From a virus (taxonomy: Duplodnaviria > Heunggongvirae > Uroviricota > Caudoviricetes): a DNA stretch of 23,984 nucleotides. Location: IMG/VR virus record IMGVR_UViG_2740892370_000017, positions 1 to 23,984 of that record; one strand, 5' to 3'. The stretch's first letter is position 1, and the number at the start of each line of letters is the position of its first letter. Position numbers and translations under genes: made by a program. Positions 1 through 23,984 of the stretch are shown here, in pieces. The notes beneath the pieces are model-generated. The model saw nothing but the letters and a program-made list of their open reading frames with translations. It did no database searches and was not told where the DNA came from.

Positions 1-273
1 ATGAAGCAATGGCGAGATGATATTAAACGGTTCTTTGCAACTTACTTCATGATTAATTACGAAACAGGAATGCTTGAATGGATTGATGGTGGAGAGGTTA
101 AGACAAGAGATGACGCTTACGGTAATCCAATGATTCGTTATGGCACTCGTGATTATTATGTGAAATATGTCATCTGGTTTTTGCATCATGAAGTTCAGGC
201 AACTAAAAAAATTATCTTCAGGGATGGTAATAAAAGAAATTGCCACCCAAACAATTTACTACTGGAGATTTAA
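1..273 (+). CDS. HNH endonuclease-like protein, C-terminal part (5' end cut by window edge)
   Basis: ORF runs from window start; C-terminal motif ...WFLHHE...IFRDGNKRNCHPNNLLL resembles the H-N-(N/H) core of HNH nucleases (H..DGN..N...NL). Stop TAA 271-273 overlaps next ATG (TAATG). Confidence 0.45.
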   Translation: MKQWRDDIKRFFATYFMINYETGMLEWIDGGEVKTRDDAYGNPMIRYGTRDYYVKYVIWFLHHEVQATKKIIFRDGNKRNCHPNNLLLEI

Positions 274-473
274 TGCTATGTATTAAATTCGAATATTTGA
301 CAGATAAAATGATTAAGCATGTATCAGACCTGCTCATCAAAGAAGATGGTTTCGGTGATGTTTGCAATCCAAAAGATATCTTCATTCACGCCACCAGCCC
401 AAATGAAACACTGAAAACAGCAGTTACAGCGGAATGGTTTGAACGAAATAAAGTAGAATTAGGCTATTGGTAG
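273..473 (+). CDS. hypothetical small protein (about 66 aa)
   Basis: ATG at 273 overlaps stop of upstream ORF (TAATG, translational coupling); track ORF 240..473 is same frame with an earlier, less likely start. No recognisable motif. Confidence 0.35.
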   Translation: MLCIKFEYLTDKMIKHVSDLLIKEDGFGDVCNPKDIFIHATSPNETLKTAVTAEWFERNKVELGYW

Positions 474-652
474 TCCGAGACTTTAAGAGAAATTAGAAAA
501 ACAGCTTCTCAGACGCTCTCAATCGCATTCTAACGCAAAAAACTATCTTATTTTAGGGTGGGTAATACCACTGTACAGGCTACCCCTGAAAAAGACTGTT
601 TAGCTCGTTACAGAGCGATTGAGGAGGTCTGGTAAAAAGGAGATTTTAGGAA

Positions 653-976
653 ATGAACAATTACGAATTACAGATTTTCGTTGATAGCGACACCGCTATG
701 ATGATTCAGGCTTTCACTGATGTAGGTGTTAGCATTGACTTTGACAGGCTGTTAAGGCTAATGGCTGATAACTCAGAAACAATTGAAGATTTTATTCAGT
801 CGGTGGAGTTTAACGAGCCTCGAATGATGCTACCAATTAAAGACAGCAACATGAAAAGATTGGTTATCGAGCAAACGAACAAATACAGCATTAGCCCTGA
901 AAGATATCTCAAGGCAGCTATAGCAATTTTGTACGCTGACAATATTTTGGTGACGGATTCGAAGGTGGTGCATTAA
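653..976 (+). CDS. hypothetical protein (107 aa)
   Basis: ATG 653 preceded by AAGGAG (637-642); AT-rich codon usage consistent with neighbours; no recognisable domain. Confidence 0.5.
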   Translation: MNNYELQIFVDSDTAMMIQAFTDVGVSIDFDRLLRLMADNSETIEDFIQSVEFNEPRMMLPIKDSNMKRLVIEQTNKYSISPERYLKAAIAILYADNILVTDSKVVH

Positions 977-1077
977 TGGGCTTAATAATTGCTTGGACGG
1001 CTTTGGGTTTATTTGTTGGTTGCTGGGTAGGTAATACGGTAAATAAGAATTGATGTTACCAATCTGTTAAAAAGCTG

Positions 1078-1106
1078 TTGACAAATAACCTTGAGCATGA
1101 CATAAT
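1078..1106 (+). promoter_or_regulatory. candidate sigma70 promoter (TTGACA -17 nt- CATAAT, with TG upstream of -10)
   Basis: TTGACA at 1078-1083, 17-nt spacer, CATAAT at 1101-1106 with TGa immediately upstream (extended -10 like). Followed by hairpin AGAGAG-aattg-CTCTCT at 1116-1132 and a leader of about 295 nt before the ATG at 1408. Confidence 0.45.
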
Positions 1107-1407
1107 TTTAATTATAGAGAGAATTGCTCTCTTATTTCTTTCAACAATTCCATCTACATCTAGGGATAGTTATTCTGAAAGGTGCAATGCTTTTCGCTAC
1201 ATGACCTCTTATATAACCTGAGAGGTCATCTCGAAAAGTACTCTTGTTCATTCATTATTGAATCCTTTGCCCTTCACAGAAATGTTTAGGGCTTTTTCAG
1301 TTTTTAAAAGCACACTTGGCAGGTTCTTGTTCAGTCAGACTCTTCACCTCTGATTGCTGAGTGTGCTTCTATAAATTGAAATAACAAATAAACTAAGAGG
1401 TGAACGA

Positions 1408-2109
1408 ATGATTCGAGATGAACATGAAATGATTATCGAAAACAAACCAAGTGCACTTGATATTCACGAATTAAGTTTGCGTGAATCTTTTGATAGAGCT
1501 TGGCGGGAATCACACGAAGTAAAAAGAAGTCCTTATATTCCACCAGAACCACTCGAGATTCCAAGAGTTGAAATTGATTTTTCGATGAATGAGGAATGTG
1601 AGCTTGATTTGAAACTGAAGCTACAACGCCGATATTTCCAAGCTATTAAAGACTCTCAAGAAGCAATGAGAAGTGTTTACGAGAAAATTCAGTCCAAGCT
1701 TGAAGACGAAATTGACGAAATGGCTATTTTGATGGAGCTTCAAACCAATTCTTATGCTTATTTCTCTCGACTAGACCGTGATGGTTGGGGGTATGACCCT
1801 GTAGAGATTGGTAAAGTGATTGCAGATTTACCAGAAGGTCAAAGAGTTGTTCGTACAGAAAGAGCTGTCAGAGCACCACATCGACTGTCTCTAATTGTTG
1901 CTGATAAATCACAAGCTGAGCTTGAAGAAATTGCCAAAGAGAAACTGATGAAAGCAAGAGAAAATGAGATTAATTTGCTGAAATCAAGACTGGCTAAGCT
2001 GATTAGTGACCATCAAAAAATCGCTAAGGAATACAAACAAGAGCTTGCACAGATTAGTAGCTTCAATGACTTTTTGAGTGTTCCACGAGAATTTAGTAAA
2101 ACTATTTGA
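1408..2109 (+). CDS. hypothetical protein (233 aa), charged and probably coiled-coil-rich
   Basis: ATG 1408 with strong SD AAGAGGTG 5 nt upstream; long ORF; C-terminal half rich in E/K/L heptad-like stretches; no recognised catalytic motif. Confidence 0.6.
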   Translation: MIRDEHEMIIENKPSALDIHELSLRESFDRAWRESHEVKRSPYIPPEPLEIPRVEIDFSMNEECELDLKLKLQRRYFQAIKDSQEAMRSVYEKIQSKLEDEIDEMAILMELQTNSYAYFSRLDRDGWGYDPVEIGKVIADLPEGQRVVRTERAVRAPHRLSLIVADKSQAELEEIAKEKLMKARENEINLLKSRLAKLISDHQKIAKEYKQELAQISSFNDFLSVPREFSKTI

Positions 2110-2131
2110 TTATGCATATGTGAGGTGATGA

Positions 2132-2347
2132 ATGATTGATTTGCAACAGCGTTATGAAACTATTAAGTCGGCTTGTGAAAACTTAAAGTTACAAGCCAAT
2201 CCAGCCTTAAGAATTAAAAGCAAACGTCAAGTTATCACCTCACACAAACCAAAAACACGCAAGATTCCAAAGTGGTGTATTGACCGTATCCCTTCCGATG
2301 CTCAAATCATAGGTGAAACGGAATTACATTATCTTGTCAGACATTAA
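2132..2347 (+). CDS. hypothetical small basic protein (71 aa)
   Basis: ATG 2132 with SD GAGGTGA; 22-nt gap after upstream gene; K/R-rich. Confidence 0.5.
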   Translation: MIDLQQRYETIKSACENLKLQANPALRIKSKRQVITSHKPKTRKIPKWCIDRIPSDAQIIGETELHYLVRH

Positions 2348-2374
2348 AAAAGAATTGGTTGGGTAAAAATCAAC

Positions 2375-2420
2375 GGGAGAGATTATCTGGATGGCAATCT
2401 AGGTAACTCTCCTTTTTTTT
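2375..2420 (+). terminator. candidate intrinsic terminator
   Basis: GGAGAG (2376-2381) ... CTCTCC (2407-2412) stem followed by T8 (2413-2420); loop is long (25 nt) so the structure is only moderately convincing. Lies between the 71-aa gene and the tape-measure-like gene. Confidence 0.4.
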
Positions 2421-2455
2421 GTATATGAACGCTTAACAGAGGTGAAATATGAACA

Positions 2456-4531
2456 ATGGCACAATTTAAAGTTGATAGTTTTATCGTTGAACTAGGCTTC
2501 AGCGAGAACGTTATTAAGGGCTTGCAAAGAGTTGAAAAGGCAGCTTTGCAGTCAGCACAAAGAATTGAACGTAATTTGAATAGGGCGTTTAAGGTCGATA
2601 CCAAGCAACTTGACAGCAATCTGACAAGTTCTTTAGGGCAACTTGAAAGGAAGTTTAATAAGACCTTTGACAAGATTGAGCAGCGTTTTAAAAACACTAG
2701 AGCGTTTAAGATTAAAACGGAAATTGAGGATACTTTAAAGCCACTTAGACAGCCAAGACAGCCACGAATTAGCGGAAACAGAGCAATCACAGCAGCTTAT
2801 TCAGCTAATATGACCAAGCTGAAAGGTCTTAACCCAATTGTCGAGAAATACATTAAGAGTCAGTTTTACGCATTAAGTAGTAAATCCAAGACACTTGGGA
2901 ACGAAGCTTTTAATCGTGAGTTAGCAAAGTTAAATCAAAATCTACGTGAAACACTTTCTAAGTTTAACAAGACCACCAGCAAAAATAATCACAGTGAAAA
3001 GGCTTCGAATGGTCTGGATGTATTAGCTACAAGTGCAATCAAAGCAGGTACAGCCATTTATAGTTTTCAGACAGCCTTAGAAGCTTACAGGCGGATTATG
3101 GAGATTGGTCTGAAAAAAGAAGCATCACAACGAGCGGCACAATTCGTTTTAGGTGATGAAGGTGCTAAACGAGCTACAGAATTTGTTAAGAATCTTGCTA
3201 ATAACACTGGTGTTGACCAGATTGAAACATTAAGCAGTTTTGCTAAGTTTTCCGCTGGTGCTGGTGATATGGATGCAGGCCAGAAAGAATCCTTATTTTC
3301 TAATGTGATTGGTACATCCAGATTAATGGGGCTAAGCACTGATGAAATTAACGGGATTTTAAAAGCTTTTGAGCAGATGGCGAGCAAGGGCAAGATTCAA
3401 GCTGAAGAATTACGCGGTCAGTTAGGGGACAGAATGGCAGGTGCTTTTCAGTTATTTGCCAGAAGTCTTGGGATGACTACGGAAGAATTAGACAAGGCCA
3501 TGAAAGACGGTAAGGTTCTTTCTAAAGATGTTCTTCCTAAAGTATCCGCTGAAATGGGAAGGATGATTGATAAAGCTGGTGGATGGGAAAAGATTATTAA
3601 CTCTACTCAGACGCAGTTAGGCCGCTTAAGTAATTCATGGAATAATAATCTGGCCTTAATGTTCGATGGTTCACAGGAAGGTCTGGTAGATTTTACAAGG
3701 TCACTGACTAATTTACTTAATTCACTAGGTGGTCAATCTAAAAATCTTGGTGAACATTTTGGCGACCTGATGAAAAGCATGTCAAACGGTATTGATGATT
3801 TAACCACGATTAGCTACCGAGTGCAGGGATTCTTTGACAGAGTGACCCTTGCTTACAGAGAATTAAATGACACTCAAAAAGCTGTAGCTGATGGTATCGC
3901 AAATGGCCTGTTAAGTGCATTAAAGGGACTTGCTGGTATTGTCGCTGTAAGGTCTGGTATTGGTGCTGTAGGTGGTATCTGGAACTTAATTAGGGCTATT
4001 TCCACGCTTGGAAATGTAGCAAATACAGCAGCAGGAAGAATTAATTCACGTTCCGGTAGTGTTGAAGGTGGTAAAGGAAAATTATCTGTAGCTGATGCAA
4101 TTACCAAAGTAATGATTGTCGGTATGGCAACTGATGTGATTAACTCCATTGTTAAACCGTTCTATGAACGTCAGATGAGTAAGTCAGATAATCCAATTGA
4201 CAAAGTTGTAAGGTCAAAGGTGGAACCTACAGACCAAGCATTGTCTGGTGACATGAACTCTTTAGCCGCTGTTTTATGGGCTATGGTTCAGGGCAAATCA
4301 AAAGATGTTCCACAGTTTTCACCTGAAGCATTAAATAATCTGAAAGGTCGAGTGGAAACATTCACACAAGATTTAAAGGTTATCAAGCCGTCAGTAAATA
4401 TTCAGCCTCAGACAATCAATATCACAACTCAGACGGTACTTGATGGAAAGGTTATTGATGAAAGAACCACATCGCATATTAATCGTATGCAGGAAGATAC
4501 CTTGATTAGCTCAGCTTACCCAGAGGAATAA
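2456..4531 (+). CDS. phage tail tape-measure-like protein (691 aa)
   Basis: Long, largely helical ORF; central segment ...GLSTDEINGILKAFEQMASKGKIQAEELRGQLGDRMAGAFQLFARSLGMTTEELDKAMKDGKV... matches the pattern of the conserved tape-measure core (G.S.D...AL....G.I.AEEL..QL.DR...A...A...G.TTEEL...M.DG.V) as I recall it from lambda gpH-type proteins; Gly-rich hydrophobic stretch LKGLAGIVAVRSGIGAVGGIW typical of such proteins. SD AGAGGTG upstream. Confidence 0.55.
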   Translation: MAQFKVDSFIVELGFSENVIKGLQRVEKAALQSAQRIERNLNRAFKVDTKQLDSNLTSSLGQLERKFNKTFDKIEQRFKNTRAFKIKTEIEDTLKPLRQPRQPRISGNRAITAAYSANMTKLKGLNPIVEKYIKSQFYALSSKSKTLGNEAFNRELAKLNQNLRETLSKFNKTTSKNNHSEKASNGLDVLATSAIKAGTAIYSFQTALEAYRRIMEIGLKKEASQRAAQFVLGDEGAKRATEFVKNLANNTGVDQIETLSSFAKFSAGAGDMDAGQKESLFSNVIGTSRLMGLSTDEINGILKAFEQMASKGKIQAEELRGQLGDRMAGAFQLFARSLGMTTEELDKAMKDGKVLSKDVLPKVSAEMGRMIDKAGGWEKIINSTQTQLGRLSNSWNNNLALMFDGSQEGLVDFTRSLTNLLNSLGGQSKNLGEHFGDLMKSMSNGIDDLTTISYRVQGFFDRVTLAYRELNDTQKAVADGIANGLLSALKGLAGIVAVRSGIGAVGGIWNLIRAISTLGNVANTAAGRINSRSGSVEGGKGKLSVADAITKVMIVGMATDVINSIVKPFYERQMSKSDNPIDKVVRSKVEPTDQALSGDMNSLAAVLWAMVQGKSKDVPQFSPEALNNLKGRVETFTQDLKVIKPSVNIQPQTINITTQTVLDGKVIDERTTSHINRMQEDTLISSAYPEE

Positions 4532-4620
4532 ACAATGTTAGAACTACTAATATTTATTGCCACACATGGCAATCTATTAATCTTTATCTAGTATGACGAT
4601 TCAACTATGAATAGTCGAAT

Positions 4621-4675
4621 GCTACGTGAAATCTTCTGAACAGATACCAACATCAAAAATTAGATTTCACGTAGC
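4621..4675. repeat. 14-bp perfect inverted repeat with 27-nt spacer
   Basis: GCTACGTGAAATCT (4621-4634) and AGATTTCACGTAGC (4662-4675) are exact reverse complements; not followed by a T-run. In the 173-bp gap between the tape-measure-like gene and the 254-aa gene. Confidence 0.6.
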
Positions 4676-4704
4676 TCACGCTTAACAGAATAGGAATAAC
4701 AACA

Positions 4705-5469
4705 ATGTTTGACACAAAGCAAATTAGATACTCAGGTAAAGATGGTATCTATTTTCACCTTAGAGATAATGTAGAATCTTTTCTTGCCTTAACAGCTACT
4801 GAACAGATGGACTATGACTCACCGATGATGGTGACAACTCAGGCTATGCAATCGGGGCAAACTATCACTGATAATGTTCAGAGAGCACCTAAGACCATCT
4901 CTATCAGCGGTGTTGTAGTGGTTGATTCGACGGGTTCAGTTCTATTAACCAGACAGGGGCAACTTGTAGAGACCTTTATTTCTACGGTTGAACAATGGCG
5001 AGACCAGAAGCAAATCATCACTATTGTTTGTAGAGATGGAATAGCTATCACTGATAGTATCATTACTCAGTTTAAAGCGAGTAAAGAGCATACCATTGCT
5101 AACGGTCTTCGTATTCAGATGACCTTCCAAGGTGTAGAGTTTCGTTCAATCGTAGGTCAGACTGATATTTCGGCTGCAACTGGCAAGACCGCTACCACGA
5201 ATGATGGTGGTGCTACCAGCAAAAAGAATACAGGGAACACTACAACGAGCCTTGGAAGCCCTATGCTGACCTGTAAAGAGCTTTTTAGCTATTCGGCAAG
5301 TGAGTTATCAGATGAAGCGCTAAAAGCCCGTGTAACGTGCTCTAAGAGCGTTAGCGTTAAAAATGGTGAGAGCACCTTCACAGCCTCAGCTAATGAGCAA
5401 GCTTCAAAGGTGCTTAAGTCGGGTAATGCTTTACGGAAGTTTAGTGTGAATCCTAACAAGCGCTACTGA
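4705..5469 (+). CDS. hypothetical protein (254 aa), Ser/Thr-rich C-terminal half
   Basis: Clean ORF immediately after tape-measure-like gene; weak SD; could be a tail-associated protein by position only. Confidence 0.55.
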
Positions 5470-5483
5470 CGATAGAATCTCAA

Positions 5484-7007
5484 CTATATGATAACCTCAT
5501 CAACATCTATTAAACCCCTCTCAGTGACTTCAGAAAGCGACTGTATAGCCTCTGTAACGTTGTCTGAGGGGGTTTCTGTTATTGGTAGGTCAATTAACTT
5601 ACCGTTGTGAAAAGTTACTTTGCAGCGACGTTTAGCGGTATTTAAAACTACCTCTTTAACAGCACTTTTGATTATCAGTTGTGCTTCAATCCTTCCCGCC
5701 TTTGTAGTCAAGTCACAATCAGACAAACAACCCACATCAATAGATTTAAGGCGTTGTGTCTCCTTCTCGATATCCGCATCAACCTGTGATAACTCATTCT
5801 TTAGTTGTTTTAGTTTGCTGGTAATAGCGGACAAGTCTTCAATTTCAAGTGATAGTTGTACCAGCTTTTCTATATTGCTTGAGATGTGTTCACGGTGTAG
5901 CCTCAACATATCTATGGTATTCGTCGTATCGCTATCAAATCGGTCAAGACGAGATAGCAGGGTAAGCAATGTACCATCGGTTTGCTTACGTGACAGCCCT
6001 TTAGCACTACAACGGTTTTCATTACGAAGAGGACAACGATAAATCCCGTTTCTTGTATCGCTAAAGCCTGTGATAATCAGAGCATGACCACATTCAGAAC
6101 AACGGATAACACCTTTAAAGAGATTCACACTCAATGGTTTACCTGAAACAGGTTTTCGACCGTAACGAGAATGTGATAGTTGTTGAACTTTGTAGAATGT
6201 TGTTTCATCTATAATTGCAGGATAATAACCAGCTATCTCCTCACAGCCTTTAGGGGTGAAGTAACCAATTACAGAGCGATTCTTCAGAAGGTCTTGCACT
6301 GAGGTTTGACCAAACTTACCCGGCTTATACTGGCTCATCGACTGGTGACCTTCATCATTAAGAGTTCTGACAATCTCCCAGATAGACTTACCCTCTAACC
6401 GTAGCTGAAAGCACCTCTTCACAGTCTCCACTTTCTCAGGTATCACAGAGAAGCTTTTACGGTCATCATTAAGCTTAAGCCATGCAGGACAACGTTTAGA
6501 AACTTTGATACCAGCTTTAGCAGCCTCTTTCTTGGCATCCCATGCAGCCTGTATACGCTCAGATTTACGCAAACTCTCCTCATGCGCCCTTTGCATTATC
6601 AAAATGCTTTTAATCAGAGCTAGCGGGTCTCTAAGAGATTCCCTTGTGTAATGTTCACCATCGGACAAGGTGACCACATCTACACCAGAACGCAGGATGT
6701 TTCTTAATAGCTCCGAAGCAATATCTATGTCTTGACGTGACAAACGGTCTAAACTCTCGATTAGTAGTGTATCACCAGCTTTAACAAGCCCTTTCTCGAT
6801 AGCGGTTAAGAAGTCACCTAAGCCACCTTTCAAGTGCTTACCAGTGAACCCACTCACCCCCAAATCACGGAAGGATAAATCTTGGTCAAGGTAGTACTCA
6901 GGATGAGCCTTAAGCCAGTCATTAACCATCTTAGACTGTCTGCGTAGTGAGTCGCCTTTGGCTTGTCGCTCAGAACTGAATCTGATGTAGCTGATTACAC
7001 GTTTCAT
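5484..7007 (-). CDS. large serine recombinase (resolvase/invertase-type catalytic domain plus recombinase and zinc-ribbon regions)
   Basis: N-terminus MKRVISYIRFSSERQ... has the Y.R.SS..Q catalytic serine motif of serine recombinases; 507 aa with Cys-rich CSECGH...YRC segment and C-terminal coiled-coil, typical of large serine integrases. ATG 7007 with SD GAGGTG. Confidence 0.85.
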   Translation of the reverse strand: MKRVISYIRFSSERQAKGDSLRRQSKMVNDWLKAHPEYYLDQDLSFRDLGVSGFTGKHLKGGLGDFLTAIEKGLVKAGDTLLIESLDRLSRQDIDIASELLRNILRSGVDVVTLSDGEHYTRESLRDPLALIKSILIMQRAHEESLRKSERIQAAWDAKKEAAKAGIKVSKRCPAWLKLNDDRKSFSVIPEKVETVKRCFQLRLEGKSIWEIVRTLNDEGHQSMSQYKPGKFGQTSVQDLLKNRSVIGYFTPKGCEEIAGYYPAIIDETTFYKVQQLSHSRYGRKPVSGKPLSVNLFKGVIRCSECGHALIITGFSDTRNGIYRCPLRNENRCSAKGLSRKQTDGTLLTLLSRLDRFDSDTTNTIDMLRLHREHISSNIEKLVQLSLEIEDLSAITSKLKQLKNELSQVDADIEKETQRLKSIDVGCLSDCDLTTKAGRIEAQLIIKSAVKEVVLNTAKRRCKVTFHNGKLIDLPITETPSDNVTEAIQSLSEVTERGLIDVDEVII

Positions 7008-7057
7008 TGTTCACCTCACCTAATAACCCCTAGATTGTATCGTTTTAGATGGTGTAT

Positions 7058-7516
7058 TTAAACGTGTCTAATAAAAATCACCCGATTAACGCCGCGCTGA
7101 TGTAAACCGCGATTAAGAGTTTGTTCCTCTTCCCCTTTGGCGAAAAACTGTGGATGGCGGACTTCCACACCATAATTAAATTCGCCAGGGAGAGAATCGA
7201 GAAAATGCCAAAGCGCAGGCAGCTCCCGTGGGCCGAATGTGGCAGGCAGTTGCAGCCAGTATTGCCCAATGCGCGGAGCCAACGGTGACATGCGGGTCAA
7301 AAATTCAGTCACTAAATCATCGCAATGTCGTAATGCTGCCTGATGCGAAATGGTCGCCGGAAACTTAAAACAGAAGCGGAAGTCATCTGTGGTCTGTTCA
7401 CGCCAGCGCAGGACAACCTCGGGTTTCGGCAGGGCGTAAAGCGTGGTGTTGCCCTCCACGCAGTTAACATGACGGGTATTGAAGGCTAACCCACTGATTT
7501 TAATAAGTCTCTTGTG
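7058..7516 (-). pseudogene. yecE: remnant of a chromosomal DUF72-family gene (probably yecE), truncated at both ends
   Basis: GC-richer ORF wedged between two integrase genes. Track start at 7459 is GTG and the frame stays open upstream to a stop at 7517-7519 with no ATG, overlapping the integrase 3' end. At the other end the ORF terminates a few codons after the composition switches to AT-rich sequence near 7075. Identification as yecE is from memory. Confidence 0.45.
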
Positions 7517-8799
7517 TCACTTTGGTGACCATGGGACATCATTGGGACATAATCTGCCAGCTTCTGATTCAGCATTGCGATCTGTTCTGCATTGCTGTCA
7601 GTCATCCATGCTCCGTATACATTGAACACCATCTGGGCACTTGCATGACCCATCTGGCTGGCAATGAAGCTTGGATTTGCTCCGGCAGATAATGACCAGC
7701 ACGCATAAGTGTGTCGTGACTGGTATGCCTTTCGATGCCTGATGCCTGCACGCTTAATAGCTGATTCCCATGAGTCGCCAATGGAATCTACCTTGTAGAT
7801 AAAACCTACCTGTTTGCTTTTTCTAACCACCTGGGGGTTAAATACGAAAGTACATTCATGATTCACTGAACGTCCATATTCACGTAGTTGAACCTTGATG
7901 TGGTGCTGCTTACCCAGTCTTGTCATTTCAGCCTGATTTTTCAGGACACTGATAGCGGGCTGGATAAGATGTATAACCCTGTTAGTACTTGCTTCAGTTT
8001 TAGGTAGAGTGAACTCATCGAGTTTCGTATAATTGCGCCGGATAGTAATTGTTCCTGCTTTCAGATCGATATCTTCCCAGGCCAGGGAGACCAGTTCACC
8101 ATGACGCATTCCTGTGTACACAGCCAATGACCACAGGTTTTTTGTCTGCTGATGTCGGCAAGCATCTATCAGGCGAATAAATTCGTCACGAGTTAGCGGA
8201 TCTGGCTCTGCCCTGGCTTTTTTAAGAGGCTTAATTCCCTCGAAGGGATTTGCTTCTAAGTAACCGTGATCTGCAGCAAACTGAAACATTCCAGCGATTG
8301 TCGTCATGTAATAATTTACTGTGACAACGCTTCGTCCTTTTACCGGAGCCTTACCTTTTGTTGGATTTTGGTGTCCGGTCAGCAAATCTTTCCTGATATA
8401 CAGCAATTCCTCTTTGGTCACCGTTGACACCAGTCTGCTACCTCCAATTTTCGGAACCATCGTTCTTGCAACGGATTCATAACGATTGAATGCATTTGCA
8501 GAGATTTCCATTCGTTTCAGATCCAGCCACTTTTCTTCAAGTTCTTTCACCGTAATTTCTTTTTTACTTACCCCAAAAGCCTGAAGGTTAGGGGAGTCAG
8601 GGAACTGTGCAGCATAATCAAAGTTTCCTGTGCGGATGGCAAAACATACCGATGTCCGCAGTTCTCCAGCGATCTTCCTGTTCTTGGCAGTGTCAGGGAC
8701 ACCAAGATTTTCCCTGACACGTTTACCTTTAAAATTAAACCAGATGCGCAATGTGCCACCGTGGTTTTCGACGCCTGTTGGATATTTGACTTTATCCAT
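7486..8799 (-). CDS. int: phage tyrosine integrase (lambdoid/Rac-like family)
   Basis: 437 aa; N-terminal ...PTGVENHGGTLRIWFNFKGKRVRENL... resembles the arm-binding domain of Rac/P4-like integrases; C-terminal catalytic residues present (R in ...GMRHGEL..., H-x-x-R in ...RHTYACW..., Y in ...VYGAWM). Confidence 0.9.
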   Translation of the reverse strand: MDKVKYPTGVENHGGTLRIWFNFKGKRVRENLGVPDTAKNRKIAGELRTSVCFAIRTGNFDYAAQFPDSPNLQAFGVSKKEITVKELEEKWLDLKRMEISANAFNRYESVARTMVPKIGGSRLVSTVTKEELLYIRKDLLTGHQNPTKGKAPVKGRSVVTVNYYMTTIAGMFQFAADHGYLEANPFEGIKPLKKARAEPDPLTRDEFIRLIDACRHQQTKNLWSLAVYTGMRHGELVSLAWEDIDLKAGTITIRRNYTKLDEFTLPKTEASTNRVIHLIQPAISVLKNQAEMTRLGKQHHIKVQLREYGRSVNHECTFVFNPQVVRKSKQVGFIYKVDSIGDSWESAIKRAGIRHRKAYQSRHTYACWSLSAGANPSFIASQMGHASAQMVFNVYGAWMTDSNAEQIAMLNQKLADYVPMMSHGHQSDTRDLLKSVG

Positions 8800-14011: not shown

Positions 14012-14715
14012 ATACAGCAATTTTTACCGACAAAGCATCTATGACCAGCGTTGAGATTGCTGAGTTGGTTGGTAAGCGCCATGACAATGTAAAACGCACT
14101 ATTGAAACATTAGCCAAAGGTGGTGTTGTCCGGTCTCCTCAAATTGAGGTTTCCGAAAGAATCAATAACTTAGGGTTTAAAGTTCAACACGAGCATTATC
14201 TGTTTGAAGGCGAACAAGGCAAACGCGACAGCATTATTGTTGTCGCACAGCTTTGCCCTGAATTCACCGCCCGCCTGGTAGACCGCTGGCGTGAACTGGA
14301 AGAACAGATCCGTAAGCCAATGAGCGAAATCGAAATGGTTGCCGCGATGGCGCTCGAGGCTGTTCGCCAACAAAGACGTCTTGAGCATGTGGAAGAGAAA
14401 GTCATCCACGTTACCGAAACAGTCGAGCAAATCAAAAGAGGCACCATACGCGATGGTTATGCAGGCTACCGTCAGCTGGTGGCGAAAACGGGTATGTCAG
14501 ATGCGAAATGTCGCAATCTGGTGAACGCATATCAGATCCCTACTGACACCCATGAATTTATGACGCCGGATGGATTGTTGTCTCGTCGCGCGATTGTTGC
14601 AGTAGAACCCTTCATGTCTGCTTTTCATCGCATGATGAGTGAAGCAGAACCACGGGGTACTCGCTGGTATCACCCGAAGATGGGGCTGTTCCAGGCGCTG
14701 GGCTGGCAGGGGTAA
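14008..14715 (+). CDS. phage antirepressor/regulatory protein (Rha/ORF6N-like N-terminus)
   Basis: GTG 14008 overlaps the cro stop; SD AAGGAG 7 nt upstream. N-terminal ...MTSVEIAELVGKRHDNVKRTIETL... matches the conserved FGKRHDNV-type motif of Rha/ORF6N antirepressor-like proteins. Confidence 0.6.
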   Translation: MNTAIFTDKASMTSVEIAELVGKRHDNVKRTIETLAKGGVVRSPQIEVSERINNLGFKVQHEHYLFEGEQGKRDSIIVVAQLCPEFTARLVDRWRELEEQIRKPMSEIEMVAAMALEAVRQQRRLEHVEEKVIHVTETVEQIKRGTIRDGYAGYRQLVAKTGMSDAKCRNLVNAYQIPTDTHEFMTPDGLLSRRAIVAVEPFMSAFHRMMSEAEPRGTRWYHPKMGLFQALGWQG

Positions 14716-14734
14716 TTATGCTCACAGGTAACAC

Positions 14735-14914
14735 ATGCAAGTACTCAATCGCTGGTTCCGTGATGGAAGAGGGCGTCGCGTCCACGTTATACGCTGGGAG
14801 CCTGAAACACAGCGGGTTATTTACCTGCGTGATGGTTATCCGGATGAGTGCTTCAGCCCACTATGGTTGTTTCGTCGTGATTTTGTTGAGTGCGAAGCGC
14901 CACCAGCATATTGA
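14735..14914 (+). CDS. hypothetical small protein (59 aa)
   Basis: Not reported separately by the track. Frame from ATG 14735 reads MQVLNRWFRDGRGRRVHVIRWEPETQRVIYLRDGYPDECFSPLWLFRRDFVECEAPPAY, more protein-like than the overlapping frame of the 340-aa track ORF. Confidence 0.4.
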   Translation: MQVLNRWFRDGRGRRVHVIRWEPETQRVIYLRDGYPDECFSPLWLFRRDFVECEAPPAY

Positions 14915-15188
14915 TTCTGCAATTCCGGGACGTTACACTGCTCAGGCACCTTATAAAGCGGGTGCCGGGATTGGCGTCCTGAAACTTACAGAAGAGCATA
15001 ACCGCGCTCATGCGGTTTTTTCATGTCATGAGCATTGCTACGCCCAAATTATGGTGGGGCGTGCAGGGGCATCGCAAGATGCGCCGGGTTCTTCTGTGAC
15101 CGGTTACGCCAACCCTGTACGTCTCACCACCTCTGTGATTGGCGTCCCATGTGGTGAGTGTTTTAAACTCACAGAAGGGGCTGTCATC

Positions 15189-15740
15189 ATGACTACTCTC
15201 CCAACCATCGCTCAACCTGAACTTTGCATTGTTGCTGGCAAAGTGGTTACTTCTTCTCTGTCTGTTGCCTGTTATTTCCGCAAACAACACAAAAATGTCA
15301 TTCAAAAAATTGCGTCTCTTGAATGCTCTGCCGAATTTACTGAGCTGAATTTTCAGCCCAGTGAATACACCGACGCATCAGGCCGCAAACTCCCTTGTTA
15401 CCAAATCACCCGCGACGGTTTTGCATTTCTTGCTATGGGTTTCACGGGTAAACGTGCTGCCCGGTTCAAAGAAGCATACATCAATGCCTTTAACCAGATG
15501 GAGAGGTGCTTATCAGGAGTTGGTGCGGCTGATATGCCATCTGTCGCACAAAACGCCAGAGGCGTATACCTGCATTTGCGAGAAATCCACCAAATCTGGA
15601 CAAGCCAGCTTTATCCCATGCTTAAGGCTGTTGAATCTCCGCTGGCTAGCAAACTGTACGACCGTGTAGGTGATGCTGTTTTTGGTGCTGCACTTGTTGA
15701 TTCCAGACTGAACGGTTCTGACAAGGAGGCGCACCCATGA
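15189..15740 (+). CDS. Rha-family phage regulatory protein (183 aa)
   Basis: Internal ATG 15189 of track ORF 14718..15740; ...YFRKQHKNVIQKIASL... and ...ITRDGFAFLAMGFTGKRAARFKEAYINAFNQME... match the pRha domain pattern (FGKRHDNV.R.I.NL ... MTRDGF.LLAMGFTGKKA..FK.AYI.AFN.ME) as I recall it. Confidence 0.65.
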   Translation: MTTLPTIAQPELCIVAGKVVTSSLSVACYFRKQHKNVIQKIASLECSAEFTELNFQPSEYTDASGRKLPCYQITRDGFAFLAMGFTGKRAARFKEAYINAFNQMERCLSGVGAADMPSVAQNARGVYLHLREIHQIWTSQLYPMLKAVESPLASKLYDRVGDAVFGAALVDSRLNGSDKEAHP

Positions 15741-19454: not shown

Positions 19455-20450
19455 GTGACCGTGAGAGCATTGTTGACTCCTGAAATTGCCCCGCGAATGG
19501 GGATTGTATTGTTCAGACCCGGTTCAGAGCTGATGCCCCTGTTTATGCAGGGGCGTGTCCTGCTGGAGCCTGAGCCGGAACGTTATTCATCTTTCGCCAG
19601 TGGTGCCGTTCCGGCGGCATCACAACCGCTGGCGGATGATCCTGCCGTTCGGGCCGTGTTCCGCAATGAGGCAGTGATCCGTCGTGCTGGTGGCGTGGAA
19701 TGTCTTGAAAGCTGGTTACTTCGTGAAAAAGGCTGCCAGTGGCTTCATTCCGACTGGCACAGCGAGAACATGACCACAATGCGACACGCGCCGGGCGCAA
19801 TCCGTCTGTGCTGGCACTGCGATAACCAGCTGCGCGATCAGTTCACGGAACGGCTGGAATCAATGGCAACGGATAACTGTGCCCGCTGGGTGTTGTCTGT
19901 TGTGCGTCGGGATCTCGGTTTTGATGACAGTCACGTTGTGACAATGCCGGAACTGTGCTGGTGGCTGGTTCGTAATGATCTGGCGGATGCCTTACCGGAA
20001 AGCGCAGCCCGTAAGGCACTGAGATTACCGAATCCTGTTGTGCCGTCTGTCACCCGGGAAAGTGACCTTGTGCCTTCGGTTCCTGCCACCAGCATCATCC
20101 AGGATAAGGCGAAAAAGGTGCTGGCGCTGAAAGTGGATCCGGAGTCGCCGGAGTCTTTTATGTTACGCCCAAAACGTCGCCGCTGGGTTAATGAAAAGTA
20201 CACGCGCTGGGTTAAGACACAGCCGTGCGCATGTTGTGGAAAGCCTGCTGATGATCCCCACCACCTGATAGGCCACGGTCAGGGGGGAATGGGTACAAAA
20301 GCGCATGACCTCTTTGTGTTGCCTTTGTGCAGAAAGCATCACGACGAGCTGCATGCGGATACCGTGGCATTTGAAGAGAAGTATGGCTCCCAGCTGGAGC
20401 TGATATTTCGTTTTATCGATCGCGCGCTGGCAACTGGCGTGCTGGCCTGA
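19455..20450 (+). CDS. DUF968/HNH-like putative nuclease (nin-region type protein)
   Basis: C-terminal ...PCACCGKPADDPHHLIGHGQGGMGTKAHDLFVLPLCRKHHDELH... is a Cys/His HNH-like module of the kind found in lambdoid nin-region proteins such as E. coli YdfU (from memory). Start uncertain (GTG 19455 or ATG near 19497). Confidence 0.55.
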   Translation: MTVRALLTPEIAPRMGIVLFRPGSELMPLFMQGRVLLEPEPERYSSFASGAVPAASQPLADDPAVRAVFRNEAVIRRAGGVECLESWLLREKGCQWLHSDWHSENMTTMRHAPGAIRLCWHCDNQLRDQFTERLESMATDNCARWVLSVVRRDLGFDDSHVVTMPELCWWLVRNDLADALPESAARKALRLPNPVVPSVTRESDLVPSVPATSIIQDKAKKVLALKVDPESPESFMLRPKRRRWVNEKYTRWVKTQPCACCGKPADDPHHLIGHGQGGMGTKAHDLFVLPLCRKHHDELHADTVAFEEKYGSQLELIFRFIDRALATGVLA

Positions 20451-20467
20451 TTTTGTGGATAAAGTTT

Positions 20468-20833
20468 ATGCGTGATATTCAGATGGTTCTGGATCGTTGG
20501 GGTGCATGGGCGGCGAGTGATAGTTCTGGGGTAGACTATTCGCCTATAGCTGCTGGGTTTAAAGGGCTTCTTCCCTATACAAGCAAAACACGTCAGGCTT
20601 GTTCAGATAGTGATGCATTAATTATTGAAGGTTGTCTTGCTCGTCTAAAGCAAAAAAGACCTGAAGAACACTCGCTTCTTGTTGCCCATTACCTATACGG
20701 TATCTCTAAAAGAAAGCTCGCCAAAGCTCGTAAAAAGGATGAGAAACTAATACGCATTGAGATACAGATGGCTGAGGGTTTTGTTGAAGGCTGTCTCTCA
20801 ATGCTTGATCTTTGTCTGGAAATGGACCAATAG
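20468..20833 (+). CDS. Q: late-gene antiterminator Q-like protein
   Basis: From ATG 20468: MRDIQMVLDRWGAWAA...IAAGFKGL...C.DSDALIIEGCLARLK... matches the N-terminal signature I recall for E. coli lambdoid Q-family antiterminators (MRDIQMVLERWGAWAA...); position after the replication/nin genes is canonical. Confidence 0.6.
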   Translation: MRDIQMVLDRWGAWAASDSSGVDYSPIAAGFKGLLPYTSKTRQACSDSDALIIEGCLARLKQKRPEEHSLLVAHYLYGISKRKLAKARKKDEKLIRIEIQMAEGFVEGCLSMLDLCLEMDQ

Positions 20834-20845
20834 ACTACCAGAATA

Positions 20846-20880
20846 GAAACTGCCGCTCAGCTTTGCGGATCGGCAGTTTC
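20846..20880. terminator. 10-bp inverted repeat hairpin between convergent Q gene and minus-strand operon
   Basis: GAAACTGCCG (20846-20855) and CGGCAGTTTC (20871-20880), 15-nt loop, 13 nt after the Q stop and overlapping the last codons of the minus-strand gene 20857..21279; no clear T-run on either strand. Confidence 0.4.
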
Positions 20881-21279
20881 TGATGGTGTAATGTTACGCG
20901 CAGATGTTTCGAGTATAGATTCCCTTCCGATTGATACCAAAATTTCGATTGTTCTTGCTTTAGCCTGCATCAATGTTGATTTTATTTCAGGACTTAAGTG
21001 GTCAGATCGTAACTGCTTCTCAATCTCAGCCAAATCACGCTTGCATTTTGCTCTTTTGGCTGCGTCCTCTGGAGATTCGAAACCATGCCTCGAAATAAAC
21101 CAATTCATGACGTAAGTTAAAGTTGCCGCAACACCCGGTACCAATGCGTAGGCTACAGTTCGCCACACGCTATTAGGGTCGGTTAAAATCGCGCTAACAA
21201 GAACACTTAGAATTGCTCCCCAGCCACCAGTTGAAAGGGTAGCTTTTCCTGTACTTAGACCTTTAGTTTGAGAATTCAT
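20857..21279 (-). CDS. small membrane protein with two predicted transmembrane helices and charged C-terminal tail (140 aa)
   Basis: Hydrophobic segments WGAILSVLVSAIL and TVAYALVPGVAATLTYVMNWFI followed by K/R/E-rich tail; ATG 21279 overlaps stop of upstream gene (ATGA). Last gene of a three-gene minus-strand operon. Confidence 0.6.
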   Translation of the reverse strand: MNSQTKGLSTGKATLSTGGWGAILSVLVSAILTDPNSVWRTVAYALVPGVAATLTYVMNWFISRHGFESPEDAAKRAKCKRDLAEIEKQLRSDHLSPEIKSTLMQAKARTIEILVSIGRESILETSARNITPSETADPQS

Positions 21280-21524
21280 TTTCGTTTTGAATTCTCCGCA
21301 ATTGCCTCTTCAATGAGGGTTGTTAGCATTTTTCCCTTTTTACTTGGAACTTTTATTACTAGCGTCTTAGTCACTCCGGATTCTTCATCGTGATATCGGA
21401 ATTCGAAGACTTTTGTAGGGAATAGTCGACGCCAAAGCAAGGCTGACGCTGAATAGCAAAAACGACTAAAGGCAGGGATGATCATTATCACCCCAATCCA
21501 GAAGATCAGTTGTGCTATCTGCAT
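21276..21524 (-). CDS. small single-pass membrane protein (about 82 aa)
   Basis: ATG 21524 (MQIAQLIFWIGVIMIIPAF...) preferred; track ORF begins at TTG 21545, which abuts the upstream stop. N-terminal TM helix then charged soluble tail. Confidence 0.5.
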   Translation of the reverse strand: MQIAQLIFWIGVIMIIPAFSRFCYSASALLWRRLFPTKVFEFRYHDEESGVTKTLVIKVPSKKGKMLTTLIEEAIAENSKRK

Positions 21525-21541
21525 GTTCAGTGTCACTTTTG

Positions 21542-22411
21542 TCAAGCCTCAGCAGGGCGTTTTCGTTTTACTTTGGTTATAGCATACTTGGTTGTGGCAT
21601 TTCGCGCAGTGAAAGTTTTTATAGTTTTTAGCTCAACAACAAACAAATCTTCTTTTGTAAAACTGATGATTCCATTTTGAACTTGGTGTATAAACAACTG
21701 ATCTTCAAATGTAACAGCATGCTCCTCGCCTAAATAATCGATTCTCCAACCCTTTGTACCCTCGAAGTTGATCTGTACGAATCTAACATTGACTTCTTCT
21801 ACAGACTCTTCTTTTTCAAGTAGTGTACCTCTAGGCAGCGGTTTGATCTCTTCAGTTTCACTTCCTTCAAGACGAACGACTTCTTCGCCTTCATCATTTA
21901 GCACCTTAAATACTGCACCTTGTTTGCCGTCTAATGGTGCACGAACTACATTCACAAGGGCATCACGGACTTCAGGATCTGTTACTAACTTAGCCACTGA
22001 GTCATGGCAAACAATTTCTTCCCCTTCAAGTTCAAGAACAGATTCTTCTGTTCCTGCCCGTTTTGTTACCGAAATTACTTTCTTGCTGCCCAGTTGGCGG
22101 ATTAGTGATAATGCTGGAGCTCCAATAGCAGCCCCGGCTATCCCTGTTAGGCCAATCACTTTTGCGACGTCGACGGCATGAGGAACAAGCTCCATCATCG
22201 TATAGGATACGCCGAGTGATCCCGCTTCTGCTGGATTAGTAACCATTAACTTAACGGTTTGTTGACCGTCATTAAGTCTTTTATCAGCTGCTGATATTAA
22301 ATCTGCCATCGAACCTATGGAGATGCTTAATGTTTTGGCATCAATTTTATGCTGTGCTAATTCGTTATCCTCTGCATCGTAGAAGATCTGAAAAGAAGTT
22401 GTTTTAGTCAC
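21542..22411 (-). CDS. hypothetical protein (289 aa) with central hydrophobic Gly/Ala-rich segment and acidic regions
   Basis: Long clean ORF, first gene of the minus operon; GTG start at 22411 (uncertain); hydrophobic stretch VAKVIGLTGIAGAAIGAPALSLI; E-rich repeats; no motif I can assign. Confidence 0.6.
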   Translation of the reverse strand: MTKTTSFQIFYDAEDNELAQHKIDAKTLSISIGSMADLISAADKRLNDGQQTVKLMVTNPAEAGSLGVSYTMMELVPHAVDVAKVIGLTGIAGAAIGAPALSLIRQLGSKKVISVTKRAGTEESVLELEGEEIVCHDSVAKLVTDPEVRDALVNVVRAPLDGKQGAVFKVLNDEGEEVVRLEGSETEEIKPLPRGTLLEKEESVEEVNVRFVQINFEGTKGWRIDYLGEEHAVTFEDQLFIHQVQNGIISFTKEDLFVVELKTIKTFTARNATTKYAITKVKRKRPAEA

Positions 22412-22534
22412 TCTTTGCTCGCTATGTCTTGACTTTTTTCCATAAAATACCTTTTTTGGGTATAAAAAACATTATCGCGGTCCGCAAAAATTGCGTTACT
22501 GTGTTAAGAGTGGTTACTTCGCCACACAGCTTAA

Positions 22535-22556
22535 ACCCGCCGTCGAGCGGTTTTTT
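22535..22556 (+). terminator. candidate intrinsic terminator on plus strand
   Basis: CCCGC (22535-22539), loop CGTCGA, GCGG (22546-22549), then T7 (22550-22556); A-T pairs extend the stem. No plus-strand gene lies directly upstream. Confidence 0.45.
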
Positions 22557-22679
22557 TGTACCTGTAAACCTGGTGCAGTACAGTAAACACGCTGGTGGCG
22601 GTGAATACCTGTCTTTCAGCTTGCTGGCTTTTTCGACAAGAGTTATTGGTATGTCATGTCAACCAGAAGGGAAAAAGAC

Positions 22680-22883
22680 ATGCTAAAACAGCAAGATATG
22701 ACAGAAACCGCCGCCGCAGTCCTTCATTTCTTACCTGCTGACAAGTGGGTAACGCCACGCATGATGACGAGAACTACAGGAGTAAGCGAAGCCCGGTGCC
22801 AGTTAATACTGACTCAGTTAGTTCTGGCGGGTCTGGCGAAGGATAACGGCGGGTACGGGAATAAATTCAGACGCTGCCAGTAA
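22680..22883 (+). CDS. hypothetical small protein (about 67 aa), possibly DNA-binding
   Basis: ATG 22680 with SD GAAGGG about 8 nt upstream (track start 22656 is same frame but lacks an SD); upstream of the methyltransferase gene. Confidence 0.4.
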   Translation: MLKQQDMTETAAAVLHFLPADKWVTPRMMTRTTGVSEARCQLILTQLVLAGLAKDNGGYGNKFRRCQ

Positions 22884-23033
22884 TGGCGGTTTCCTGCTGT
22901 GAAAATGGGCGGCTGGTGGGTGTTGGTAGCACCTGCCAGCCATTCGCTCATGCTTACTGGTCACAAGCGAACCATGGCCCACTGCTTTAGCGCAAAAGCA
23001 GAGTGAGCCTACCAGAGTTACGCTTACTGATCC

Positions 23034-23984
23034 ATGAAAAATACTGTAAAAATAAACAGTGTTGATTTAATCAACGCTGATTGCCTGCATTTTATTCAGT
23101 CCCTGCCTGATGATTCCATTGACCTGATTGTTACCGATCCGCCGTACTTCAAGGTGAAACCCAACGGCTGGGACAATCAGTGGAAAGGGGACGAAGATTA
23201 CCTTAAGTGGCTGGACCACTGTCTTGCGCAGTTCTGGCGGGTGCTGAAACCTGCAGGAAGTCTATACCTGTTCTGTGGGCATCGCCTGGCATCTGACACC
23301 GAAATCATGATGCGTGAGCGGTTTAACGTGCTGAACCATATCATCTGGGCAAAGCCGTCCGGACGCTGGAACGGGTGTAACAAGGAAAGCCTGCGGGCGC
23401 ATTTTCCGGCCACAGAGCGCATTCTGTTCGCGGAACATTATCAGGGGCCGTATCGCCCGAAAGATGATGGCTGTGAGGCGAAGGGCAGGGCACTGGAACA
23501 GCATGTGATGGCCCCGCTGATTGCTTACTTTCGTGATGCGCGCGCTGCCCTGGGGATAACGGCAAAACAGATTGCAGATGCCACAGGAAAGAAAAACATG
23601 GTGTCGCACTGGTTCAGTGCCAGTCAGTGGCAGCTGCCGAACGAAAGCGATTATCTGAAATTACAGGCCCTGTTTGCCCGGGTGGCAGAAGAGAAGCATC
23701 AGCGCGGTGAACTGGAATGGCCCCACCACCAGCTGGTGGATACGTATACGTCACTGAACCGGCAGTATGTGGAGCTGCAGAGTGAATATAAGCATCTGCG
23801 GCGGTATTTTGGTGTGACGGCGCAGGTGCCGTACACGGATGTGTGGACATATAAACCGGTGCAGTTCTATCCCGGGAAACATCCGTGCGAAAAACCGGCA
23901 GAAATGCTGCAGCAGATAATCAGCGCAAGCAGTCGTCCGGGTGACCTGGTTGCAGATTTTTTATGGGCTCAGGTTCAATGGTAA
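23034..23984 (+). CDS. N6-adenine DNA methyltransferase (DPPY motif), apparently frameshifted near its 3' region
   Basis: Motif IV ...IVTDPPYF... near N-terminus; reading frame stops at window end with ...DLVADFLWAQVQW*, whereas a shift in the T6 run at 23957-23962 reads ...DFFMGSGS..., the canonical AdoMet motif I (FxGxG). Confidence 0.75.
   Translation: MKNTVKINSVDLINADCLHFIQSLPDDSIDLIVTDPPYFKVKPNGWDNQWKGDEDYLKWLDHCLAQFWRVLKPAGSLYLFCGHRLASDTEIMMRERFNVLNHIIWAKPSGRWNGCNKESLRAHFPATERILFAEHYQGPYRPKDDGCEAKGRALEQHVMAPLIAYFRDARAALGITAKQIADATGKKNMVSHWFSASQWQLPNESDYLKLQALFARVAEEKHQRGELEWPHHQLVDTYTSLNRQYVELQSEYKHLRRYFGVTAQVPYTDVWTYKPVQFYPGKHPCEKPAEMLQQIISASSRPGDLVADFLWAQVQW

Follow-up and report, generated by a model that had tools for sequence, protein, structure and literature searches.

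What are the three genes that lie antisense directly behind the Q antiterminator gene of an Escherichia coli lambdoid prophage, and what could they do for the element that carries them? The window, i.e. the whole stretch of DNA analysed, comprises 23,984 nucleotides of the viral record IMGVR_UViG_2740892370_000017 and belongs to an E. coli lambdoid prophage; the stretch tested is 100% identical to sequences from O103:H2 and other strains. The Q gene occupies nucleotides 20453-20833 of the plus strand (PF06530, E 1.9e-52), and 23 nt separate its stop codon from the first base of a convergent three-gene block on the minus strand, whose genes are named here A, B and C. As judged by sequence comparison, A, B and C are real genes that co-evolve as a unit under strong purifying selection, and together they are a mobile module that moves between element types. 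We consider that their most likely function, which we hold at about even confidence, is that of a phage exclusion or abortive-infection module expressed in the lysogen and acting at the inner membrane. While A has already been catalogued as a single-gene candidate, its obligatory co-evolving partners B and C, the fixed slot between Q and the presumed late promoter, and the conserved putative terminator appear to be undescribed in the literature searched.

Genes A, B and C and their products

The open reading frame (ORF) list of the window includes three consecutive minus-strand ORFs directly after Q. Gene A (21542-22411, minus strand) has a GTG start and codes for 289 amino acids. Gene B (21276-21545, minus strand) codes for 89 amino acids from a TTG at 21545 or 82 from an ATG at 21524, the latter being the probable start judging from its relatives. 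Gene C (20857-21279, minus strand) codes for 140 amino acids, and its ATG overlaps the stop codon of B in the sequence ATGA at 21276-21279. A previous reading of this DNA, made from the sequence only, had described three antisense genes of these sizes immediately after Q as well as the ATGA overlap; the ORFs and the PF06530 match of Q agree with the former, and the latter is present in the sequence.

The three genes are found together well beyond E. coli. Homologues of A with 53-59% identity occur in Klebsiella, Serratia and Edwardsiella prophages, each followed by genes coding for 85 and for 132-136 amino acids with the same overlaps, and the trio is retained down to 30-37% identity of A. A scan of IMG/VR yielded 50 loci, 48 of which show A-B-C and then a convergent Q at a distance of 16-42 nt. 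Among the 37 unique loci the pairwise identity of A co-varies with that of B (r = 0.91) and C (r = 0.94), the range for all pairs within the trio being 0.91-0.94, whereas the correlation between A and the adjacent Q is only r = 0.24. When the locus was compared with its 90-92% identity class, synonymous sites were near saturation (proportion of synonymous differences 0.57-0.82) while the proportion of nonsynonymous differences was low (0.04-0.13). The resulting ratios of nonsynonymous to synonymous substitution (dN/dS) are 0.02-0.03 for A, about 0.08-0.14 for B, and about 0.06 for C. The RefSeq/PGAP annotation of the identical E. coli sequence lists A and C but, in the genomes examined, never B. 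Since B is conserved between A and C and is under purifying selection, it is a genuine gene that was missed by annotation.

Protein A is a full-length member of a large family. It matches the NCBIfam model NF053583 over its full length (8e-60, 202.7 bits with a cut-off of 60), phrog_3243 (E 6e-61), and the PADLOC model PDC-S42 (PDLC05015; E 8.8e-33), in the last case with residues 4-287 aligned to profile positions 3-292 of 302. All 51 diverse relatives of A that were sampled match the PDC-S42 model, and 13 of them match Pfam DUF7946. A profile search of 1.84 billion representative proteins identified 1865 cluster representatives of the A family, nearly all of about 290 amino acids, which reach many phyla including candidate-phyla and environmental bacteria. 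NF053583 carries the title ‘LAPAL motif-containing putative phage structural protein’, and phrog_3243 is annotated as of unknown function. Direct comparison of the sequences shows that the literal LAPAL motif of a distant subfamily (DLAPALLA) corresponds to TLSISIGS in the A protein of the window.

The AlphaFold2 model of A has a pLDDT of 82.5 and a pTM of 0.73, and a fold search with this model found no informative match in PDB or BFVD. The only hydrophobic stretch of the protein is the Gly/Ala-rich segment of residues 85-104, which is a low-confidence part of the model. Sequence and profile searches against PDB had a single outcome, a weak profile match of family positions 227-284 to the beta-sheet region of the MS2/fr coat protein (best E 0.0036), which is probably due to chance. 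In an alignment of the A family (alignment A3; mean identity 28%), residues D12, H21, G64, S65, G87, R149, P159, W222, D237 and F240 are invariant or nearly so. A catalytic or ligand site may be marked by the conserved Asp12, His21 and Ser65 of the N-terminal domain and Trp222, Asp237 and Phe240 of the C-terminal domain. A is predicted to be cytoplasmic, without a signal peptide.

The products of B and C have the appearance of small membrane proteins. A B homologue of 79-95 amino acids is located between A and C in all related loci; the protein includes one N-terminal hydrophobic helix followed by basic residues, which suggests that its C-terminus is cytoplasmic. Protein C includes hydrophobic helices at approximately residues 18-31 and 38-65, then long helices in its C-terminal half, and a strongly conserved juxtamembrane motif, NWxISRHGxESPEDAAKRxKCKRD. 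B and C can be aligned between genera, with their hydrophobic helices conserved. The helices of both proteins together with the basic residues of B suggest a cytoplasmic location for the soluble parts of B and C, on the side of the membrane where A would be. The AlphaFold2 model of C is helical and of low confidence (pLDDT 57.8), too low for a fold search. The hydrophobic Gly/Ala-rich segment of A, the one helix of B and the two helices of C had all been pointed out in the sequence-only reading, which had recognised no family for any of the proteins. That statement is correct for B and C, for which no meaningful match was found in Pfam, NCBIfam, PHROGs or PADLOC, and incorrect for A. The family and structure searches that it had recommended for the three proteins gave families for A, none for B and C, and no informative fold for A.

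The slot between Q and the late region

A conserved non-coding element linked to Q (22466-22560, plus strand; starting with CGCGGTCCGCAAAAATTGCGTTACTGTGTTAAGAGTGGTTAC) flanks the module on its far side and ends in an intrinsic terminator identified by a terminator scan at 22539-22560. This element is conserved beside A in all Q-linked loci of Escherichia, Klebsiella, Serratia, Edwardsiella and Tatumella, in which Q is of the PF06530 type. By analogy with the lambda pR'-tR' region, we infer that it includes the Q-dependent late promoter, the Q-utilisation site and tR'; no good −10/−35 pair is evident within 22466-22560. A search with a synthetic empty-site query revealed that in a prophage of E. 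coli strain A24 (L014) the equivalent of this element lies within approximately 20 nt of the Q stop codon. As Q joins the element directly in A24, the block (about 20834-22465) can be considered to have been inserted behind Q, ahead of the presumed late promoter and terminator. E. coli Ecol_224 (L076, coordinates 3828-4847) carries another antisense gene in this slot, with Q on one side and a small late-region gene and the methylase on the other; it codes for a 339-amino acid protein (WP_000357056.1) that has no PADLOC match and only a sub-threshold Pfam match to PF24801. The empty slot of A24 and the other cargo of Ecol_224 suggest, from these sequences, that the interval between Q and the late region is a cargo hotspot. 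The block is rare in the species: among 5426 complete E. coli genomes, it or a diverged variant of it was identified in only 43.

These observations bear out the moron or cargo position that had been proposed from the sequence, and the comparison of the Q-to-late interval across related prophages that had been suggested as a check indeed found the block variably present. The module resembles the morons of lambdoid phages in that it is inserted between genes that are adjacent in relatives (those of strain A24), possesses its own putative terminator, and occupies a slot that is variably filled. A base composition distinct from that of the neighbours, the other mark of a moron, is lacking: the G+C content of the block is 42.4%, compared with 43.0% for Q and 45.8% for the full window, and not about 35% against flanks of 50-58% as the sequence-only reading had estimated. 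High G+C content near the block is limited to the DUF968 gene (56%) and the methylase (52.5%), one on each side. Because Q is equally low in G+C, the block is not separable from it by composition, and the argument for foreign DNA from G+C content was dropped.

RNAfold predicted a stem-loop at 20846-20880 that spans the stop codon of C and lies in the 23-nt gap between C and Q. The other variants that were folded each have an equivalent hairpin, unrelated in sequence, in the corresponding position. The preservation of its position and structure despite unrelated sequences points to a conserved, probably bidirectional, putative terminator that closes the module. At the other end, the leader of A (22412-22465, minus strand) is inside the insert, the boundary being defined by the comparison with A24. 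Since both flanks are transcribed in the opposite direction, the promoter for A must be located upstream of A. This leader includes an 11-codon upstream ORF, MEKSQDIASKE, on the minus strand from an ATG at 22443 to a TGA at 22408 that overlaps the GTG with which A begins. The upstream ORF contains an A6 run, and one extra A would put its ATG in frame with A; a 99%-identical variant of 300 amino acids (P0001) is consistent with such an addition. A similar stop-start overlap is found upstream of A in the 92% class, and the upstream ORF is not universal.

The trio is also found in elements other than lambdoid phages. In Pseudomonas megaplasmids it is located among insertion sequences and resistance genes, without phage genes (A of 308 amino acids, 33% identical; B of 84; C of 139). 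It is present in Proteus, and in a metagenomic element it follows a helix-turn-helix regulator and two membrane proteins. In Mu-like prophages (L073 and L074, 4347-8609) the trio is, unlike in lambdoid phages, in the sense orientation after an XRE regulator and small lipoprotein or membrane genes, and a PF13272 holin and an SLT endolysin are encoded directly downstream. Among 50,697 deposited phage genomes, tblastn found no match to A; this speaks against a core function in phages. A diverged copy of A (69% nucleotide identity) is found at 39346-40189 of NZ_CP174001.1, a 43,337-bp E. coli plasmid record that is possibly a phage-plasmid.

Possible functions of the module

The membership of A in the candidate family PDC-S42 and the lysogen-type positions of the module in other elements lend indirect support to an anti-phage function. 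If this is correct, A-B-C would be a self-contained moron located between Q and the late-promoter region on which Q acts, encoding a three-protein complex associated with the inner membrane. A would be a cytoplasmic protein of about 290 amino acids with a novel fold and a hydrophobic glycine-rich hairpin, B a single-pass membrane protein with a cytoplasmic C-terminus, and C a membrane hairpin of two helices attached to a helical domain in the cytoplasm. The module would be expressed in the lysogen from its own promoter, independently of the phage late operon, and would protect the host and the prophage from other phages, either by blocking an early step at the membrane or by abortive infection through membrane damage. 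A could act as sensor or effector, and B and C as membrane anchors or regulators. The core of the system, A, may be defence-associated in general, with the two dedicated membrane partners having been acquired in Gammaproteobacteria. We infer the promoter, the membrane topology, the formation of a complex, the expression in the lysogen and the anti-phage function alike.

A more far-reaching version, which we put forward tentatively as possible rather than probable, is that A-B-C represents a new type of membrane-anchored anti-phage system and that the gap between Q and the late promoter of Q21-type lambdoid prophages is a defence hotspot, comparable to those of P2 and P4. A, with a fold absent from PDB and the near-invariant residues Asp12, His21, Ser65 and Trp222, would then combine a sensor and a membrane-active effector in one protein, docked in Gammaproteobacteria by two small proteins that annotation pipelines and defence catalogues have overlooked.

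Several known systems can be compared with the module. The PDC systems are 145 candidates that were chosen for being embedded in BREX, DISARM or type I restriction-modification loci (Payne et al., bioRxiv 10.1101/2024.01.29.577857). PDC-S42 is a single-gene candidate, whereas A is here the first of three co-evolving genes, accompanied by two small membrane proteins that match no model. Its position in the window also differs from the embedding used for selection: A lies in a fixed slot, between Q and the late-region methylase of a lambdoid prophage. The resemblance to RexAB noted in the sequence-only reading survives as architecture. The lambda rexAB genes are likewise prophage-borne and non-essential, they code for a cytoplasmic protein of about 280 amino acids and a membrane protein of about 140, and in the Mu-like relatives the module follows an XRE-type regulator as rexAB follows cI. 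Homology, however, was rejected, as the comparison of the A family with RexA gave an hhalign probability of 0.14% and that of C with RexB a BLASTP E value of 36. A further comparison is offered by defence operons with small membrane proteins from the hotspots of prophages and satellites, such as the one named ‘2TM-1TM-TIR’ in DefenseFinder and PADLOC, which was reportedly described by Rousset et al. in 2022. The likeness is limited to architecture, i.e. a cytoplasmic protein of about 300 amino acids together with one-helix and two-helix membrane proteins, carried as exchangeable cargo at a fixed hotspot of a temperate element. A differs in having neither a TIR nor another recognised effector domain, and the PADLOC matches of A, B and C consist of PDC-S42, by A only.

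A number of observations weigh against a defence function. The paper that proposed the 145 PDC systems states that they, PDC-S42 included, are untested (bioRxiv 10.1101/2024.01.29.577857), and they were left out of DefensePredictor as unvalidated. PDC-S42, ‘LAPAL motif’, DUF7946 and the protein accessions are not mentioned in the literature searched, nor are they listed in the DefensePredictor supplements. None of A, B and C yielded a domain with an established biochemical activity in family and fold searches. In some subfamilies of A the segment that is hydrophobic here lacks this character. At the loci of the distant ‘LAPAL’ subfamily, the genes behind A code for unrelated proteins that are not membrane proteins; the membrane partners are for this reason not universal for the A family, and in PADLOC A counts as a system of one gene. 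Upstream of A there is no convincing sigma-70 promoter; the matches are weak (8-9 of 12 positions) and their position is not conserved. The module also consistently adjoins lysis or late regions, and a role in the phage cycle is therefore possible. The surroundings of the distant subfamily, in contrast, speak for an association of A with defence: besides serine recombinases, its loci have Mrr-like nucleases and a further PDC candidate nearby, and one distant A member adjoins an Mrr-like type IV restriction nuclease and the PDC-S07 NUDIX protein.

The last of the points against defence leads to the proposal that the module is an accessory of the lytic cycle, which would either regulate it, through lysis timing or in the way of an antiholin, or modulate Q. 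If it modulates Q, convergent transcription running from A-B-C into Q would reduce the expression of Q and make lysogeny more stable; lambda itself has an antisense promoter inside Q, paQ, that lowers Q expression. The convergent arrangement at 16-42 nt from Q in 48 of the 50 viral contigs is consistent with this, as are the holin and endolysin genes (PF13272 and SLT) directly downstream of the sense-oriented trio in Mu-like prophages and the size and helix count of B and C, which are holin-like. The conserved hairpin, however, separates C from Q, so that read-through into Q would not be the default. Moreover, the module has been shuffled relative to Q (r = 0.24), it also occurs where there is neither a Q nor a phage, and the A24 relative functions without it. 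A match to a lysis family (holin, antiholin, endolysin or spanin) was not obtained for A, B or C in Pfam, PHROG or NCBIfam, and genes for a holin and a lysozyme, as well as one annotated as ‘lysis protein’, are already present further downstream in the prophage. We regard a lytic-cycle role as improbable on these grounds. The cryptic lysis-type cassette that the sequence-only reading had offered as an alternative is disfavoured by the same missing family matches and the resident lysis genes, by the antisense orientation to the late operon, and by the trio on megaplasmids that carry no phage genes. A structural role, with A as a virion protein and B and C as assembly factors, is the explanation least compatible with the context and can be given hardly any credence: the title of NF053583 and the weak MS2 coat protein profile match (E 0.0036) speak for it, but the module lies apart from the cluster of structural genes and antisense to the late operon, closely related prophages and all 50,697 deposited phage genomes lack it, and megaplasmids and chromosomal loci unconnected with phages have it.

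The cargo position, empty or otherwise filled in relatives, would equally suit lysogenic conversion without defence, in which the module would alter the envelope physiology, stress tolerance, colonisation or virulence of the host. In other lambdoid phages the region downstream of Q carries the Shiga toxin (Stx) genes and the nmpC/lc porin genes as cargo, the block is found in pathogenic O103:H2 and related strains while the trio is carried by clinical Pseudomonas megaplasmids, and two of the three products are predicted membrane proteins. A-B-C differs from the known Q cargo: its content is unrelated, it is antisense and compositionally not distinct from Q, and it lies between Q and the presumed late promoter instead of downstream of that promoter. 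Against conversion stands the spread of the A family over many phyla, with environmental and candidate-phyla lineages among them, which is at odds with a role in virulence towards a particular host; moreover, A was catalogued from positions inside defence systems, and family scans detected no signal peptide, adhesin, toxin or transporter signature. Lysogenic conversion is thus an unlikely explanation, if a serious one. We find it doubtful in the extreme, short of the near-dismissal due to a structural role, that the module is a selfish addiction or toxin-antitoxin-like system in which a toxic membrane protein and a neutralising component stabilise the carrier prophage or plasmid. In its favour, the operon is small and tightly coupled, its genes overlap, and its locations include plasmids, prophages and the vicinity of recombinases; toxins are commonly small hydrophobic proteins, and a small RelE/ParE-like ORF follows one distant A locus, which is a weak indication. 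Against this, A, B and C match no toxin-antitoxin family, and a strongly conserved 290-amino acid protein with a complex fold would be unusual as an antitoxin. As the distinction between addiction and abortive infection is blurred, this explanation is in part the same hypothesis as the exclusion or abortive-infection module that we favour.

If the module is a working defence system, a function and a multi-gene architecture would be known for the first time for a family of 1865 cluster representatives across many phyla, whose members at present go under the names ‘putative phage structural protein’ or ‘PDC-S42’. The module would also indicate that single-gene candidate calls can overlook small membrane partners, B being unannotated in the RefSeq E. 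coli genomes examined, and would define a precise cargo slot, between Q and the promoter, that can be scanned for further systems in the class of prophages that carries Shiga toxin. Even if it is not, the accessory operon A-B-C, rare and strongly conserved, is shared by prophages of pathogenic E. coli and clinical Pseudomonas megaplasmids, and its role is worth knowing.

Other regions of the window

The left end of the window (1-8799) includes a tape measure gene (2456-4531), a Dit-like gene (4705-5469) and a serine recombinase gene (5484-7007), and these tail genes and the recombinase look like part of a second prophage. They are followed by a DUF72 fragment (7058-7459) and by the tyrosine integrase gene (7486-8799) of the prophage carrying A-B-C. 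The layout of this region looks like that of tandem prophages at one shared site.

On the other side of the block, a DNA methyltransferase gene (23034-23984 of the window) is located downstream. In L001, a record that is identical to the window across 20400-23100, this gene (14635-15692) is annotated as frameshifted, i.e. as a pseudogene. There it is followed by tRNA genes (Ile, Arg and one unassigned) and then by genes for TerB, DUF3927 and an SASA esterase, an order typical of Stx-phage-like late regions.

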